Counted from the first letter of the stretch, positions 15,350-39,448 are shown. The stretch is 42,482 nucleotides of DNA from a candidate division WWE3 bacterium (GCA_027002375.1 JALWZX010000060.1:1-42482), one strand, 5' to 3'. Program-made: numbers and translations. Notes: a model not told the origin generated them from the sequence alone.

Positions 15350-16492
15350 ATGCAAAAACAATATAACGTAGAAGATTTACAAATCGACCAAAAATTAATT
15401 AAAGAGCCATTTGCCTTGCTTGAATTTGAAAAAAAACTAAGTAAGCAAATGAAGCCTTACTATAATATAGAATTGGGCGATAAAACTGGTAAGATACGAG
15501 CGAAGGCATGGACTGAATCAATCCCAAATTTAGATACTAACGCAGAAGTTGGAAATATTGTAGCCATAACTGGAAAGGTTCAATCATATGCTGATAAACC
15601 CCAAATAATTGTTGAAAGGCTTGAAGTTGTTGATGACATTGCGCCAGAAGAATTTTTAGTAGTAACTGAAAGAGATAGAAGCCAAATGGCTGATGATTTA
15701 AAAGCTGAGATAGATAAGACGCAAAATCAATATTTAAAACAGTTACTTGATCTTTTTTGGAATAACGATGACTACAGAGACAAATTTATAAACTTTCCAG
15801 CCGGTGAATATGTACATCATGGTTATGTCGGTGGTTTAATAGAGCATGTTTGGGAAATGAACGAATTAAGTAAACCATATTTGAAAATGTACAAGAATTT
15901 AGATCGTGATCTTTTATTTACCGGAATATTTTTTCATGATATTGGTAAATTAGAAGAATTAGACATTGTTGGGGCAACCATTATAAGAACTGTTTCTGGT
16001 AGGTTGATAACACATATACCTCAGGGTTTACTGTTTGTTGATCATTTGATACAACAAATCCCTGATTTCCCAGAAATGTTAAAAGATAAGGTGTTTCATA
16101 TGATATTAAGTCATCAAGGTAAATTAGAATTTGGAAGTCCAGTAGTACCTCAATTACTAGAAGCTTTAGTGTTAAGCCAAATAGACGATGCTGGTGCTAG
16201 TATGAACCAAGCTGTTAAACATATAGAGAAAGAATATCAAACCGGTAATGAATTTACAGATTATCATAAATGGTTAAAGAGAAGCTTTTATCAAAAAGAT
16301 TATTATTCGGATCCAAATAAGACAGACGAATCTATTGATGGTTCCTCTAGTACAGCTATTACTAGTGACGAAAAAAGATTTGATCGGGCAATAAGATCAC
16401 ATGCTACCAATAATTCCGATATCGTTAGAAATACTGATTCTGCTGAAGAATCTGAATCCATGAAAAAAGATAAGCAAAATTCGTTATTTTGA
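15350..16492 (+). CDS. yhaM: OB-fold + HD-domain 3'-5' exoribonuclease (YhaM/Cbf1 family)
   Basis: N-terminal OB fold (LGDKTGKI), HHGYVGGLIEH, HDIGK, HMILSHQG.LEFGSP. Confidence 0.88.
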   Translation: MQKQYNVEDLQIDQKLIKEPFALLEFEKKLSKQMKPYYNIELGDKTGKIRAKAWTESIPNLDTNAEVGNIVAITGKVQSYADKPQIIVERLEVVDDIAPEEFLVVTERDRSQMADDLKAEIDKTQNQYLKQLLDLFWNNDDYRDKFINFPAGEYVHHGYVGGLIEHVWEMNELSKPYLKMYKNLDRDLLFTGIFFHDIGKLEELDIVGATIIRTVSGRLITHIPQGLLFVDHLIQQIPDFPEMLKDKVFHMILSHQGKLEFGSPVVPQLLEALVLSQIDDAGASMNQAVKHIEKEYQTGNEFTDYHKWLKRSFYQKDYYSDPNKTDESIDGSSSTAITSDEKRFDRAIRSHATNNSDIVRNTDSAEESESMKKDKQNSLF

Positions 16493-16495
16493 TTT

Positions 16496-18055
16496 TTATA
16501 TTTCAATCTTTACTTTATGCTTTTTATCTGTTCTGACTTTCTCAGTATAATGTGTAACTTTCGGTAAATACCCAAACATCATCATTGTTTCTGCATATAG
16601 CCATGGTACTAGTCCATATGTAAGCATGTTTATCATTGCAAATGGTGCTTCGAGAAGTGCTGTGTATTTTCTCCATTTAGGAAATGTTGATGGCACAGGG
16701 TATAATTTATGCCTAACATATGTTAATGGTATAAACATGAATATACCAGCGGTTAAGAATATACTAATAATTTTGGGTAAGCCATATGTTGTCGCTTGCA
16801 TTCTAAAGCTCCTGTTTACAAATGTCAGAATAGTAAATCCAAATGTAATTAGAAATACAGAGGTGCGTACTAGTAGGTGCCTTTCTATTTTTAAATATAG
16901 CCAAACTAATTTTTGGTCGAGTGTCAAATTTTCTAGCTTACGTGTAAAGAACATTTTAAAAGCTATTGCTGTTGACACACTTCCCCATCCCCATCGTACT
17001 AGTTGCTTAAATAAATTTCTATGTGCTATTACATAATTTTCACCGCCTGTAGCGTCACTGTAAATTGGTAGGTGAAAATATCGTGCAGAAAAATCCCCTT
17101 TTCTTGCCTCAAATGCGCGCCAATAAAATAGTGTGTCATCAATAAATTTGACATCCCAATAATTTGCCGAGATTAATGTATCTAAAGATGTGGAATAACA
17201 GGCAAACGTTTCTGATAACCTTGATTGTGTAGTCCAACTAGATAGTAAACCCAATGTTAAGTTTGTAGCTTCTATTCTAGCAAGTAGCGGAACTTCCCAA
17301 ATATTATTGGTAAATAAATGAACTGCCGTTTCATAAAACCTATTGTATCGCTTTTCATCTATTAAATAGTTATAAGTGACTGCAGCTAAAAAATGATGGT
17401 GTAATACAGCATCTGAGTCAAATGTTGTGAAAATGCAGTTATTTACTTTTAAGCCTTCCTTACGTAACTGTTCTATTGCATGTTTCGCCGCCCATGTTCT
17501 ATTAGGTGATGCTACCCCTACGATTTCGTCGGGCAAACCTTTCGGATGAATAAATTGCATTATTCTAGGTAATTTATTGCCATATTTTTTCTTAATTTTG
17601 TTTATGGCATCGGTTACCCTTTCTTTTCCAGCTTCTTCGGTTCCAACAACAATAATAATTTTATCCTTACCAATTGACTGCCTCATAATACCCTTAAACG
17701 TTGGCTCAAGTACTTCGAATGGTTCTTTATATGTGGGAATTAAAAGTATATGTTTCAATTCCTCATAACTATCAGGTAATGTCTTTTTATTTGGAAGTTC
17801 GGCAAAATCTAGATTTTCTACCTTTTTTAACCAATCCGTCTGTAGAGCTTTTTCGTATTTTTTATAGCCTAAAAGTAAACCTTTTGCATGAGTTATCGCC
17901 ATATAAAGCCAATATATTGCTATAAATGTTAAAACGAATGTTGCGCCTTTGGGGTAAATTATGCCAAGCCATATAGGCATAAATATCATTAACCACGATA
18001 GAAAGCCGGGTATAAACATAAATAATCTATCTGTTTTTTTCTTTGGATTTATCAT
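16496..18055 (-). CDS. Membrane GT2 glycosyltransferase (processive, cellulose-synthase-like motifs)
   Basis: IPTYKE, FDSD, DDT, QLVRWGWG (QxxRW); N- and C-terminal TM helices; start set at ATG 18055 (ORF track uses 18079). Confidence 0.85.
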   Translation of the reverse strand: MINPKKKTDRLFMFIPGFLSWLMIFMPIWLGIIYPKGATFVLTFIAIYWLYMAITHAKGLLLGYKKYEKALQTDWLKKVENLDFAELPNKKTLPDSYEELKHILLIPTYKEPFEVLEPTFKGIMRQSIGKDKIIIVVGTEEAGKERVTDAINKIKKKYGNKLPRIMQFIHPKGLPDEIVGVASPNRTWAAKHAIEQLRKEGLKVNNCIFTTFDSDAVLHHHFLAAVTYNYLIDEKRYNRFYETAVHLFTNNIWEVPLLARIEATNLTLGLLSSWTTQSRLSETFACYSTSLDTLISANYWDVKFIDDTLFYWRAFEARKGDFSARYFHLPIYSDATGGENYVIAHRNLFKQLVRWGWGSVSTAIAFKMFFTRKLENLTLDQKLVWLYLKIERHLLVRTSVFLITFGFTILTFVNRSFRMQATTYGLPKIISIFLTAGIFMFIPLTYVRHKLYPVPSTFPKWRKYTALLEAPFAMINMLTYGLVPWLYAETMMMFGYLPKVTHYTEKVRTDKKHKVKIEI

Positions 18056-18080
18056 TATTAATATAGCTGTAATATACAAT

Positions 18081-18166
18081 TAATGCTCACTGCGTTCGCA
18101 TTATCATTTGTTATTCACTTCGTTCATAACATCCTGTAATGCTCACTGCGTTCGCATTATCATTTG
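18081..18166. repeat. REP-like cluster of three hairpins sharing loop TCACT(G/T)CGTTC
   Basis: 30-bp taatgctcactgcgttcgcattatcatttg at 18081 and 18137; the middle unit tgttat-tcacttcgttc-ataaca has the same loop and a different stem. Confidence 0.85.
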
Positions 18167-18215
18167 GGCTGGTTTCTCGCATGTATCGCATTTTAGTATA
18201 CCACAGATATTTAGA

Positions 18216-18244
18216 TTGACATTAAGTTATTGCCCTTTTATTTT
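18216..18244 (+). promoter_or_regulatory. Putative sigma70 promoter of fusA-tuf
   Basis: TTGACA (18216-18221), 17 nt, TATTTT (18239-18244); a divergent TG-n-TATACT on the minus strand at 18195-18203 could drive the GT2 gene. Confidence 0.6.
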
Positions 18245-18248
18245 ATTC

Positions 18249-18521
18249 ATGCAATAATTACATGCGCTAAGTTTTTAGCAGGCTAAAGTCTTGTATTATA
18301 ATAAAAATTTAGTGCTTAAACGTAATGTTTCATTATTAATAATGATAACGACAAGGCACGACAGTATGGTCGTGAATGTGAGTTGTAAATCTCGCTATCT
18401 AGAGATTTTGCAGTTACCATTTGTATCGTGCAATTAGTACGAATTTATGGTTTCTGATATTAACACATAACTTATAATAGTTAGCATTTTGTAATACGCA
18501 AGTTGTATTATACTTATGCAT
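18249..18521 (+). ncRNA. Candidate large structured RNA / 5' leader of fusA
   Basis: At least 8 helices with G-U pairs in the + sense and a closing stem atgcaataa/ttatgcat; lies between the promoter and the fusA ATG. Confidence 0.55.
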
Positions 18522-18532
18522 AAAAATAGTAT

Positions 18533-20629
18533 ATGGCAGACGTTCATGTAGCCGATAAGGCACAACAGTTTACAATTGACAAGATTAGAAATATAGGAAT
18601 AATTGCGCATATTGATGCTGGTAAAACTACAGCAACAGAAGCAATATTATATGCGACTGGTTTAAGGCATAAAATCGGTGTGGTTCATGAGGGTGACACT
18701 ACAACAGATTGGATGGATCAAGAAAGAGAAAGGGGAGTAACCATTGTGTCTGCCGCTGTTACATCATTTTGGAAAGATCATAGAATAAATATAATAGATA
18801 CACCGGGGCATGTTGACTTTACGGCTGAGGTAGAGAGATCTTTAAGGGTTTTAGATGGTGCGGTTGTTGTTTTGGACTCAAAAATGGGTGTTGAAGCGCA
18901 GACTGAAACTGTATGGAGACAAGCTGATAAATATAAAGTTCCGAGAATTTTTGCTTTTAATAAAATAAATCAGATCGGTGGTGACTTTTACAAAACATTA
19001 GAATCTGTAAAATCACGACTAACTGAGCATGCTTATCCTGTTATGTTACCAATTGGCAAAGAAAAAGAAATAAATGGTTGGGTAGATTTGGTTACAATGA
19101 AAGCTTATAGATACAATGAATATACAGATAAAACATTAATTGAAGAAGAAATTCCAGAAGATATGAAAAATGAGGCTATGGTCTATAGAACACATATGAT
19201 CGAGAAAGCGATTGAAGCCGATGAAAAATTAATGGAAAAATATTTATCCGGTGAAGAACTTACTGTTGATGAAATTAAAACAGCAATTAGAAAAAGTACA
19301 ACAAGTTTAGAGATAGAATTTTATCCGGTTTTTGGTGGTGATTACAGGGGTGTTGCTGTTGAACATTTACTAGATGCTGTTGTTGATTATTTGCCATCAC
19401 CATTAGATACTATGCCTGCACAAGGTACTGATACCAAAACTGGTGAGACATATATTTGTAAGCCCGATAAAAATGAAAAATTCGTAGCGTTAGCATTCAA
19501 GGTGATGACAGACCCGTATGTCGGTAGGTTGGTCTACATTAGGGTGTATTCTGGTACATTAAAATCAGGGTCGTACATTTATAATACTACCAAAGGCAAA
19601 AAAGAGAGAATCGGTAGAATTGTCTTGATGCACGCTAATGATAGAGAAGAAATTCAGCAAGTGTATGCGGGGGAAATCGCAGCAGTTGTCGGTTTAAAAG
19701 ATACATCTACTGGCGACACAATAACAGAAGAGGGTATGCATGTGGTGTTGGAAAATATATCATTTGCTGAACCAGTTATTTCCATGGCTATTGAGCCTAA
19801 GACAAAATCTGATCAAGAAAAAATGGGGCTTGCTCTAAAGAAACTTATGGATGAAGATCCTACTTTTAAAGTTAGTACAGATGAGGAATCAGGACAAACT
19901 ATAATTTCCGGTGTTGGTGAATTCCAGTTAGAAATAAAAGTTGATTTGTTGAAAAGAGATATGGGGGTTGATGTAAATGTCGGTGCACCAAAGGTTGCAT
20001 ACAGAGAGACGATACAGGGTTCGGCAGATGCTGAAGGTAAATATATAAAACAATCTGGTGGTAGAGGTCAGTATGGACATGTTTGGTTAAGAGTTAAACC
20101 GTTAGAAAGGGGCGAAGGATTCAAATTTGTTAATAGTATTGTTGGTGGTACGATACCTAGGGAATATATTCCGGCTGTAGAGAAAGGGGTGAAAGCCGCT
20201 ATGGAAAAAGGTGTTGAATGGGGTTATCCAGTTGTAGATGTTGAAGTTGAACTTTATGATGGTTCTTATCATGAAGTTGATTCGTCTGAAATTGCTTTTC
20301 AGTTAGCAGCAAGAGAGGCTTTTCAAGATGCTGTAAGAAAAGCAAAAATGATCTTGCTAGAACCTATTATGAAGGTTGAAGTGGTTACACCTGAAGAGTT
20401 TGTTGGTGATGTTATAGGCGATTTGTCATCTAAAAGAGGTATGATAGAGGGTACAGAGCAAAGGGGAAACGTACAAGTAGTAAAGGCTTCGGCGCCGTTG
20501 GCAGAATTATTTGGATACGTAACTATTCTAAGAGGTTTGACACAAGGTAGAGCTGCACCTTCGATAGAACCAAGTCATTATGAGGTGGTGCCAGCTAATG
20601 TAGCAGAAAAACTAAAAACGAAAGATTAG
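18533..20629 (+). CDS. fusA: Elongation factor G (non-canonical G4/G5)
   Basis: RNIGIIAHIDAGKTT, QERERGVTI, DTPGHVDF, KQSGGRGQYGHV, YHEVDSS, LLEPIM. Confidence 0.99.
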   Translation: MADVHVADKAQQFTIDKIRNIGIIAHIDAGKTTATEAILYATGLRHKIGVVHEGDTTTDWMDQERERGVTIVSAAVTSFWKDHRINIIDTPGHVDFTAEVERSLRVLDGAVVVLDSKMGVEAQTETVWRQADKYKVPRIFAFNKINQIGGDFYKTLESVKSRLTEHAYPVMLPIGKEKEINGWVDLVTMKAYRYNEYTDKTLIEEEIPEDMKNEAMVYRTHMIEKAIEADEKLMEKYLSGEELTVDEIKTAIRKSTTSLEIEFYPVFGGDYRGVAVEHLLDAVVDYLPSPLDTMPAQGTDTKTGETYICKPDKNEKFVALAFKVMTDPYVGRLVYIRVYSGTLKSGSYIYNTTKGKKERIGRIVLMHANDREEIQQVYAGEIAAVVGLKDTSTGDTITEEGMHVVLENISFAEPVISMAIEPKTKSDQEKMGLALKKLMDEDPTFKVSTDEESGQTIISGVGEFQLEIKVDLLKRDMGVDVNVGAPKVAYRETIQGSADAEGKYIKQSGGRGQYGHVWLRVKPLERGEGFKFVNSIVGGTIPREYIPAVEKGVKAAMEKGVEWGYPVVDVEVELYDGSYHEVDSSEIAFQLAAREAFQDAVRKAKMILLEPIMKVEVVTPEEFVGDVIGDLSSKRGMIEGTEQRGNVQVVKASAPLAELFGYVTILRGLTQGRAAPSIEPSHYEVVPANVAEKLKTKD

Positions 20630-21954: not shown

Positions 21955-21987
21955 CAATGAGCCCTCTGTAATACAGAGGGCTCATTG
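21955..21987. repeat. Perfect 16-bp inverted repeat between tuf and rpsJ
   Basis: caatgagccctctgta-a-tacagagggctcattg; no U-tract follows. Confidence 0.9.
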
Positions 21988-39371: not shown

Positions 39372-39448
39372 CGGGGTGTGGCGCAGTTGGCTAGCGCGTA
39401 CGCATGGGGTGCGTGAGGTCGTGGGTTCAAGTCCCACCACCCCGACCA
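39372..39448 (+). tRNA. tRNA-Pro (GGG), CCA encoded
   Basis: CGGGGTG/CACCCCG acceptor stem, D-arm GCGC/GCGC, anticodon arm TACGC-ATGGGGT-GCGTG, GTTCAA T-loop, ACCA end. Confidence 0.97.

Follow-up and report, generated by a model that had tools for sequence, protein, structure and literature searches.

The region directly upstream of the elongation factor G gene (fusA) looks like a young, fast-changing untranslated leader with a few conserved hairpins, and not like a new RNA gene or a riboswitch. The window, i.e., the whole stretch of 42,482 nt that was analysed, is contig C60 of the source assembly (G000; 811 kb, 77 contigs, 76% complete), and it was compared with a single congener (G001) and with seven fusA loci from other genera of the family. 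The hairpins are present and strand-asymmetric; the promoter block, the second hairpin (H2) and the last hairpin before the start codon are conserved, and so, apparently, is the first one (H1); the spacer carrying them is found in one genus only. The explanation preferred here, to which we give an even chance of being correct, is that fusA has a genus-specific, structured 5′ untranslated region (UTR) headed by a protective hairpin. The region would thus be the 5′ leader of fusA, and probably of tuf too (~268 nt here and ~165 nt in the congener), and it would have arisen in a genus of Saccharibacteria when a membrane-protein gene came to lie between fusA and its yhaM-like neighbor.

Gene order in the window begins with secD, secF and further genes, followed by rpoB (6438) and rpoC, and then by rpsL (13367), rpsG (13936) and radC (14457), all of them identified with Pfam. 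The next gene (15350) encodes an OB/HD protein, termed yhaM-like here since NCBIfam relates it to the 3′-5′ exoribonuclease YhaM, and is followed by the membrane-protein gene (519 aa, 16496..18055, minus strand), whose GT2-like Pfam matches are sub-threshold only. Both genes are convergent, and the 3 nt between their stop codons (16492-16496) leave no space for terminators. fusA itself (18533..20629, plus strand, 698 aa) is followed by tuf (20742), and then by rpsJ and the following ribosomal-protein genes, again according to Pfam. The listed start of the membrane-protein ORF is TTG 18079; nonetheless, nine out of nine relatives (G001 and eight family homologues) begin at an ATGAT at the position of 18055, and the divergent intergenic region between this ATG and the fusA ATG at 18533 was therefore set to 18056-18532, that is, 477 nt, as compared with 272 nt in G001 by pairwise alignment. 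Further downstream, a perfect 13-bp G+C-rich hairpin (21956-21986, aatgagccctctg taata cagagggctcatt) lies between tuf and rpsJ, 20 nt past the stop codon of the former and 17 nt ahead of the likely true start of the latter, ATG 22004; the listed rpsJ start (TTG 21985) falls within this hairpin, no T-tract follows it, and a role as terminator, 3′ stabiliser or S10-leader element is conceivable.

Shine-Dalgarno sequences precede a minority of the genes in the window, with AGGAGG at only ~5/42 starts, and many genes devoid of them show TATAAT-like hexamers 5-12 nt 5′ of the ATG (e.g., 3471, 15350, 30664, 35789, 40596). Because of these two features, leaderless mRNAs and leaderless translation are probably common in G000. 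No transcript-start data for Saccharibacteria were found in the literature searched, as judged from titles and the first part of abstracts.

Folding of positions 18249-18535 (287 nt) yields -71.4 kcal/mol on the plus strand (z -3.74, 0/200 dinucleotide shuffles as good) and -52.2 kcal/mol on the minus strand (z -2.11, 7/200 shuffles as good). The comparison with dinucleotide shuffles had been proposed together with the original prediction of a densely structured RNA, and on the plus strand the leader does beat them. The energy gap between strands amounts to 19.2 kcal/mol, of which 12.9 (about two thirds) are compositional, the shuffle means being -56.4 (plus) vs. -43.6 (minus) and the plus strand being 54% G+T. 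As a genome control, gaps of at least 200 nt between ORFs of at least 80 aa (crude calls) were collected over the whole G000 assembly, and the final 273 nt of every gap were folded on either strand and compared with 30 dinucleotide shuffles per fold; 106 of the 107 gaps were folded, and 96 remained once 10 overlapping a tRNA were put aside. The tRNA-free gaps show a mean z of -2.1 (sd 2.3), and z ≤ -3.74 is reached on at least one strand in 25/96 of them (41/192 strand folds), and on the plus strand in 18/60 gaps having a plus-strand gene at their right. By this method the fusA gap gives z -2.61/-2.26, and a strand energy difference of at least 17.5 kcal/mol, the size of that of the fusA gap, occurs in 17/106 gaps. 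The fusA leader is structured relative to shuffled sequence and ordinary within the intergenic DNA of its own genome, and the claim of exceptional folding is not supported. Since about a quarter of the gaps match the z of the leader, folding z alone is no marker of an RNA gene here. A total of 16/96 tRNA-free gaps have z ≤ -5 (e.g., C21:479-689, C41:3746-4191, C73:3978-4390, C48:4135-4405), and some of the strongly folding gaps may be unannotated RNAs.

That so many gaps of the genome fold equally well favors a rival explanation, which we consider possible but doubtful: a functionless hairpin-rich spacer left behind by the rearrangement, with fusA being leaderless or near-leaderless, transcription starting near the ATG and the upstream block serving the membrane-protein gene. 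The original prediction placed the RNA behind a TTGACA promoter, and such a site exists on the plus strand (TTGACA at 18216-21, 17-nt spacer, TATTTT as second hexamer; 18216..18244, 10/12), but it is not kept in G001, where GAGTTT and a spacer shorter by 2 nt are found. The site that is kept is TTGCCC-17-(TGc)AATAAT (18230..18258, plus strand, 9/12, TG present), and the congener shares with it the two hexamers, the length of the spacer and the TG. On the opposite strand, a promoter-like ATGTCA-16-TATACT whose second hexamer is preceded by TG (18195..18222) is assigned to the membrane-protein gene, and its TGnTATACT part is also kept in G001. The conserved block (18190-18276) thus carries promoter-like sites for both divergent genes; its 52 nt at 18224-18275 are 88% identical between both species, as compared with 56% for third codon positions of fusA (random expectation, 33%). 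With third positions identical to only this extent, unconstrained intergenic DNA is expected to be hard to align, as is most of the spacer. The promoter of the divergent gene alone could explain part of the conservation of the block.

According to the preferred explanation, fusA would be transcribed from the extended -10 promoter TTGCCC-17-TGnAATAAT (18230-58), with a start predicted at ~18264-66 from the conserved -10 hexamer at 18253-58, so that the RNA would begin with H1. Promoter-like sites are common in AT-rich DNA (8 were found in the scan vs. 5.3 expected in shuffles), and the predicted fusA start is a consensus match only. A proximal start is also possible: promoter-like boxes adjoin the fusA ATG in sister genera, TATAAT-type boxes occur in this genome, and TATTAT/TATACT is found at 18506-13, all of which would suit a spacer without function. 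Against it, no proximal promoter is common to G000 and G001, and the scan lists no site ending within 40 nt of the fusA ATG.

H1 (18264..18315, plus strand) has an outer stem of 14 bp, two of them G-U, below an imperfect apical part, and its first paired base lies 6 nt past the -10 hexamer, at the predicted start. The stem had been recognized in the original prediction, and it is found at 18264-77/18302-15, topped by a small apical stem, in the sequence and in both the minimum free energy (MFE) and centroid structures. Both species fold the hairpin from a homologous GCUAAGUUUU, G001 forming a perfect long hairpin. In G000, H1 reaches -16.4 kcal/mol on the plus strand vs. -5.9 on the minus strand (z -2.8), and in G001 -14.8 vs. 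-8.4 kcal/mol (z -4.4). The shared stem is identical in sequence, and thus no covariation can be drawn from it; MAFFT/RNAalifold on the two sequences gave no consensus for H1 nor for the 18418-62 module.

Stem-loops at the 5′ terminus are well established as stabilizers of bacterial mRNAs, such as in the ompA and papA leaders of E. coli or the aprE leader of B. subtilis. Such mRNA-stabilising 5′ stem-loops are reportedly the subject of two papers cited in a review (PMC3997798), one by Emory et al. 1992 and the other by Hambraeus et al. 2002. H1 would play an equivalent role, as a 5′-terminal protective stem-loop against 5′-end-dependent decay. Like the ompA, papA and aprE leaders, the fusA leader is long, precedes a highly expressed gene and carries a stable hairpin, predicted to lie right at its 5′ end; it differs from them in that no sequence relationship exists, several more hairpins are present and the start is a predicted one. 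As in other 5′-stabilizer systems, a 5′-end-dependent RNase is encoded in G000, namely an RNase J homologue (TIGR00649, C63:4282-5937, 429.9 bits vs. a cut-off of 400); no RNase Y was detected above cut-off in this 76%-complete assembly.

H2 is a perfect 16-nt palindrome (TCATTATTAATAATGA, 18330..18345, plus strand), corresponding to the predicted tcatta/taatga pairing, which the sequence indeed contains at 18330-35/18340-45 and which also forms part of the predicted fold. A hairpin occurs at the same place in G001, and the two-sequence RNAalifold consensus contains 6 pairs, 2 of them changed on both sides and none broken. The last hairpin (18484..18519, plus strand) comprises an outer GCAU/AUGC, an inner 9-bp stem and a loop CAAGU, and ends 13 nt before the AUG. 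Its inner stem is the predicted tgtaatacg/tgtattata pairing, found at 18490-98/18504-12 with two G-U pairs in sequence and fold. In the comparison with G001, 8 out of 11 consensus pairs are unchanged and none is broken; two changes are one-sided (G-U/A-U and U-A/U-G) and one is two-sided (A-U/G-C), while its 9-nt loop is nearly all different. The G-U/U-G changes are compatible with the plus strand only. Although the covariation evidence comes from two sequences (G000 and G001), H2 and the last hairpin keep their pairing through the changes, as H1 also appears to do, and the G-U pairs fit one strand alone; this agrees with the predicted RNA-level structure on the plus strand before fusA, and argues against a functionless spacer.

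Between the last hairpin and the AUG there is an unpaired A/U-rich tract without Shine-Dalgarno sequence (AUAAAAAUAGUAU, 18520..18532, plus strand), and such a tail of 13-15 nt is common to both species. The last hairpin would leave this initiation region open and insulate it from the upstream hairpins. A closing stem atgcaataa/ttatgcat had also been proposed for the whole region. It forms at best 5 contiguous pairs, it competes with the outer GCAU/AUGC pairing of the last hairpin (18484-87/18516-19), which is the one kept in G001, and it would lie partly outside the RNA if transcription starts at the conserved TTGCCC promoter.

The same features were weighed as DNA elements. Palindromes in a divergent promoter region could be operators for dimeric regulators, the RNA structure being incidental, and this explanation, which we judge very unlikely, draws on the position between divergent genes, on the perfect 16-nt palindrome at 18330-45 and on two perfect 30-nt repeats with TAATGC-N10-GCATTA within 18081-18166. 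Nonetheless, neither the repeats nor the exact palindrome are present in G001, operator half-sites would be expected to keep their sequence, yet H2 and the last hairpin have changed in a compensatory manner, and the G-U pairs make the structures strand-specific. The two repeats (18081-18110 and 18137-18166, 56 nt apart), each with the internal inverted repeat, are absent from the remaining assembly as well; they probably belong to the 5′ UTR of the membrane-protein gene, since they lie between its minus-strand promoter-like site and its ATG, and they might serve as an operator pair or fold into RNA hairpins. Besides, a perfect 15-nt inverted repeat (18049-18063/18334-18348) matches the H2 palindrome to the start-codon region of the membrane-protein gene (UAUUAAUAAUGAUAA). 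Pairing of the fusA leader with the initiation region of the membrane-protein mRNA could in principle occur; the inverted repeat is absent from the congener and may therefore be due to chance.

Between H2 and the last hairpin lies a variable middle (18350..18483, plus strand) with hairpins at 18357-74, 18387-18408, 18416-51 (in which 18426-42 is nested) and 18468-83. Two of the stems predicted here, cacgac/gtcgtg (18357-62/18369-74) and tcgtgc/gtacga (18426-31/18437-42), occur in the sequence and are part of the fold. A proposed 16-bp stem at 18378-93/18402-17 comes down to the 7 bp aaatctc/gagattt and 4 outer pairs beyond a 4x4 internal loop; the centroid retains the 7 bp only. The three-way junction closed by acaa/ttgt is absent from the MFE and centroid structures and lacks a counterpart in G001, and the pairing ttatg-gtt/aac-a-cataa is likewise missing from both structures, ACCAU/AUGGU (18416-20/18447-51) being paired instead. 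The middle as a whole (~18350-18480) is unalignable and without counterpart in G001, whose leader is ~100 nt shorter, alignable in parts only, and forms different middle hairpins (z -4.27 for 175 nt folded). The picture of one dense structured RNA of ~270 nt is consequently not supported. According to the preferred explanation, the hairpins between the first and the last conserved ones would undergo rapid turnover and be individually non-essential. The lack of conservation of the middle and the difference of ~200 nt in spacer length between two species would also be expected from a spacer without function.

The middle contains a weak terminator-like candidate on the plus strand (18426-42; 6 pairs, 3 of them G-C, tail ATTTATGGTT). 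A mid-leader hairpin with a U-rich tail is present in both species, namely 18426-42 followed by AUUUAUGGUUUC in G000, and UUCGAAU...AUUCGAA followed by GUAGUUUUC in G001; the alignment failed to match these two hairpins and no antiterminator was identified. Together with the conserved hairpins upstream of a translation-factor operon and the little divergence between strains, these U-tailed hairpins would suit a true regulatory leader, in which the conserved hairpins bind a protein (r-protein or translation factor) or a ligand, or in which an attenuator tunes fusA-tuf. This we deem unlikely, as the mid-leader hairpins do not align, no Rfam family matches even at E ≤ 10, and there is neither a conserved multi-helix core nor an unpaired block of the kind typical of ligand or protein sites. 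Furthermore, the element is found in one genus, while its putative target genes are universal. With regard to a possible regulon, a model of the last hairpin (R3) searched against 12 family genomes gave E < 1e-8 at two fusA loci only, plus one extra match at E 0.85, and hence the motif, found nowhere else in these genomes, defines no regulon. The H1 motif, searched as a sequence pattern in the same 12 genomes, was found at two fusA loci, with one additional exact, non-syntenic match in G008 (sequence only). The autoregulatory leaders of r-protein and translation-factor operons (S10/L4, L10 and L20 in Rfam) are comparable to the fusA leader as structured leaders of a translation operon, reaching here into S10-spc; they differ in that the fusA leader matches none of them even at E ≤ 10, is confined to one genus, lacks a conserved core, and shows no identified mimic of an rRNA binding site.

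The shared architecture of the leader was also addressed with models of the whole element. A covariance model of the G001 leader finds its best match over the window at 18384-18537, with 13 bits and E 0.14, and pairs the first hairpins of the congener with non-homologous hairpins of G000; a sequence-only model of the same leader finds nothing in the window. An overall architecture common to both species is thus not upheld, and the weakness of this match counts in favor of a functionless spacer. It was also considered whether an independent small RNA might be transcribed from the distal promoter and end before fusA, as a conserved promoter followed by stable hairpins might suggest. We regard this as highly improbable: there is no terminal hairpin with a U-tract (the last hairpin is followed by AUAAAAAU), neither length nor content are conserved, and no Rfam family was found. 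The original prediction had left the choice between an undescribed non-coding RNA and a cis-acting leader; no known family matches, and the cis leader fits better than the non-coding RNA.

The Rfam 15 search of the whole window at gathering thresholds gave a tRNA (39372-39445) as its sole match, and at E ≤ 10 the interval 17900-18700 gave three chance-level matches (16-20 bits vs. thresholds of 40-229), none of them on the plus strand; in the original prediction, too, no tmRNA, RNase P, SRP or riboswitch had been recognized in the leader. A copy of a MITE-like interspersed repeat was ruled out, for 18056-18532 matches only itself in the 811-kb G000 assembly, and sensitive blastn found no further copy better than E 0.008 (69 nt at 70%). 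Rickettsia palindromic elements and MITE-like repeats are also short, hairpin-rich, AT-rich and intergenic, and an insertion of this kind could in principle account for the ~100 nt extra relative to the congener; the fusA leader differs from them in having no second copy of any of its parts in the assembly. A small protein-coding gene was equally discarded: tblastx of both spacers showed no frame-specific conservation, matching the promoter block only, in several frames and on both strands.

The neighborhood of fusA in relatives provides information on the age of the spacer. In a DNA search of 60 relatives, similarity beyond the coding part of fusA was found in the same-genus G001 only. Directly upstream of fusA, a yhaM-like gene is present in all seven loci belonging to other family genera, and two same-order loci also have one upstream; at class level, rpsG is directly upstream of fusA in five loci, and four further loci showed none of the four query genes upstream of fusA. 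The separation of fusA from rpsG by radC and the yhaM-like gene is thus family-wide (7/7 other family loci). The membrane-protein gene was found in all 11 other family genomes searched, and in every other genus it lies away from the fusA locus, as contig or coordinates differ (in G007, fusA was not located). Its upstream regions at these other sites (8 family loci) show no similarity to the fusA spacer. As read from these gene orders, the long spacer arose with the translocation of the membrane-protein gene, which was placed on the opposite strand, with the yhaM-like gene on one side and fusA on the other. With a family-wide separation and a translocation in one genus, the separation is old and the long spacer younger, which agrees with the prediction that the leader was acquired after fusA had been separated from rpsG. 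A metagenome search with the membrane protein as query gave two loci, neither of them providing another leader of the genus (in the first, the N-terminus and upstream DNA are missing; the second is a relative with 28% identity and another gene context), and a pattern scan of genome contigs for the promoter block recovered the congener only.

In sister genera, the spacer before fusA measures about 50-100 nt in the six loci read (L004-L008, L010). Five of these six share a box abutting the fusA ATG, (T/C)ATTGC - ~17 nt - TG(T/G)TTAAAT - 9 nt - ATG, in which the last 9 nt are variable; L008 fits more poorly, and in this locus an additional 147-aa ORF intervenes upstream of fusA. Because the conserved box directly adjoins the ATG, its position suggests that fusA mRNA is leaderless or near-leaderless in these genera. 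This promoter-like box in other family loci, as well as the frequency of leaderless-type TATAAT boxes in the window, would also be in line with a functionless spacer in G000. The box (TTATTGC-N17-TGTTTAAAT-ATCCGTCGT-ATG) resembles the distal promoter of G000 in its -35 TTGC, its TG extension and its A/T-rich -10, and differs in that it adjoins the ATG, whereas the look-alike in G000 is ~270 nt upstream of fusA. Homology between both was examined: their ungapped identity is 21-23/45 vs. a mean of 21-23 for shuffled queries, that is, no better, and so homology of the distal promoter to the sister-genera box is unsupported.

A more ambitious version of the regulatory proposal, which we hold to be quite unlikely, is a riboregulator born de novo after the translocation cut fusA from its old leaderless promoter context. 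If true, the first and last hairpins, perhaps together with the U-tailed mid-leader hairpin, would sense a translation-related protein or nucleotide and set the output of EF-G and EF-Tu, and a regulatory RNA would have been caught at a very young age.

Divergence among close strains was assessed with contigs from X3 and X4, two runs of a second study, aligned to ~2 kb of the window. In the membrane-protein gene, 30/711 nt differ between the close strains and the window, and third codon positions account for 20 of the 25 sites listed. The spacer (18137-18532) differs at 2/396 nt in X3, and at 0/174 and 4/213 nt in two pieces from X4; fusA shows 4/519 and 3/321 differences (7/840). The spacer is less divergent than the membrane-protein gene (Fisher p = 1.3e-4), and comparable to fusA when all sites are considered (p = 0.73). 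Against fusA third positions, p is ~0.04 if all 7 fusA differences are third positions, a borderline value. Four substitutions fall in the leader: 18443 A>G turns an A-U into a G-U pair, 18499 and 18502 are in a loop, and 18527 is unpaired. A spacer as conserved as fusA between close strains is at odds with the absence of function, and the low strain divergence of the leader fits constraint; nonetheless, divergence falls from ~4.2% in the membrane-protein gene to ~0.7% in spacer and fusA near 18110-18137, and a recombination boundary at this place could look alike.

No open question of the field hinges on the fusA leader. About one quarter of the longer intergenic regions of G000 fold as far under shuffled sequence as this leader does, and this intergenic hairpin load is a caution for structure scans of reduced CPR genomes. 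If the preferred explanation is true, the leader would be a small, datable case of a reduced CPR genome constructing a long 5′ UTR de novo following a rearrangement, in which a gene seemingly expressed without a leader in relatives would have gained a distal start, a 5′ hairpin and a hairpin near the start codon within one genus.
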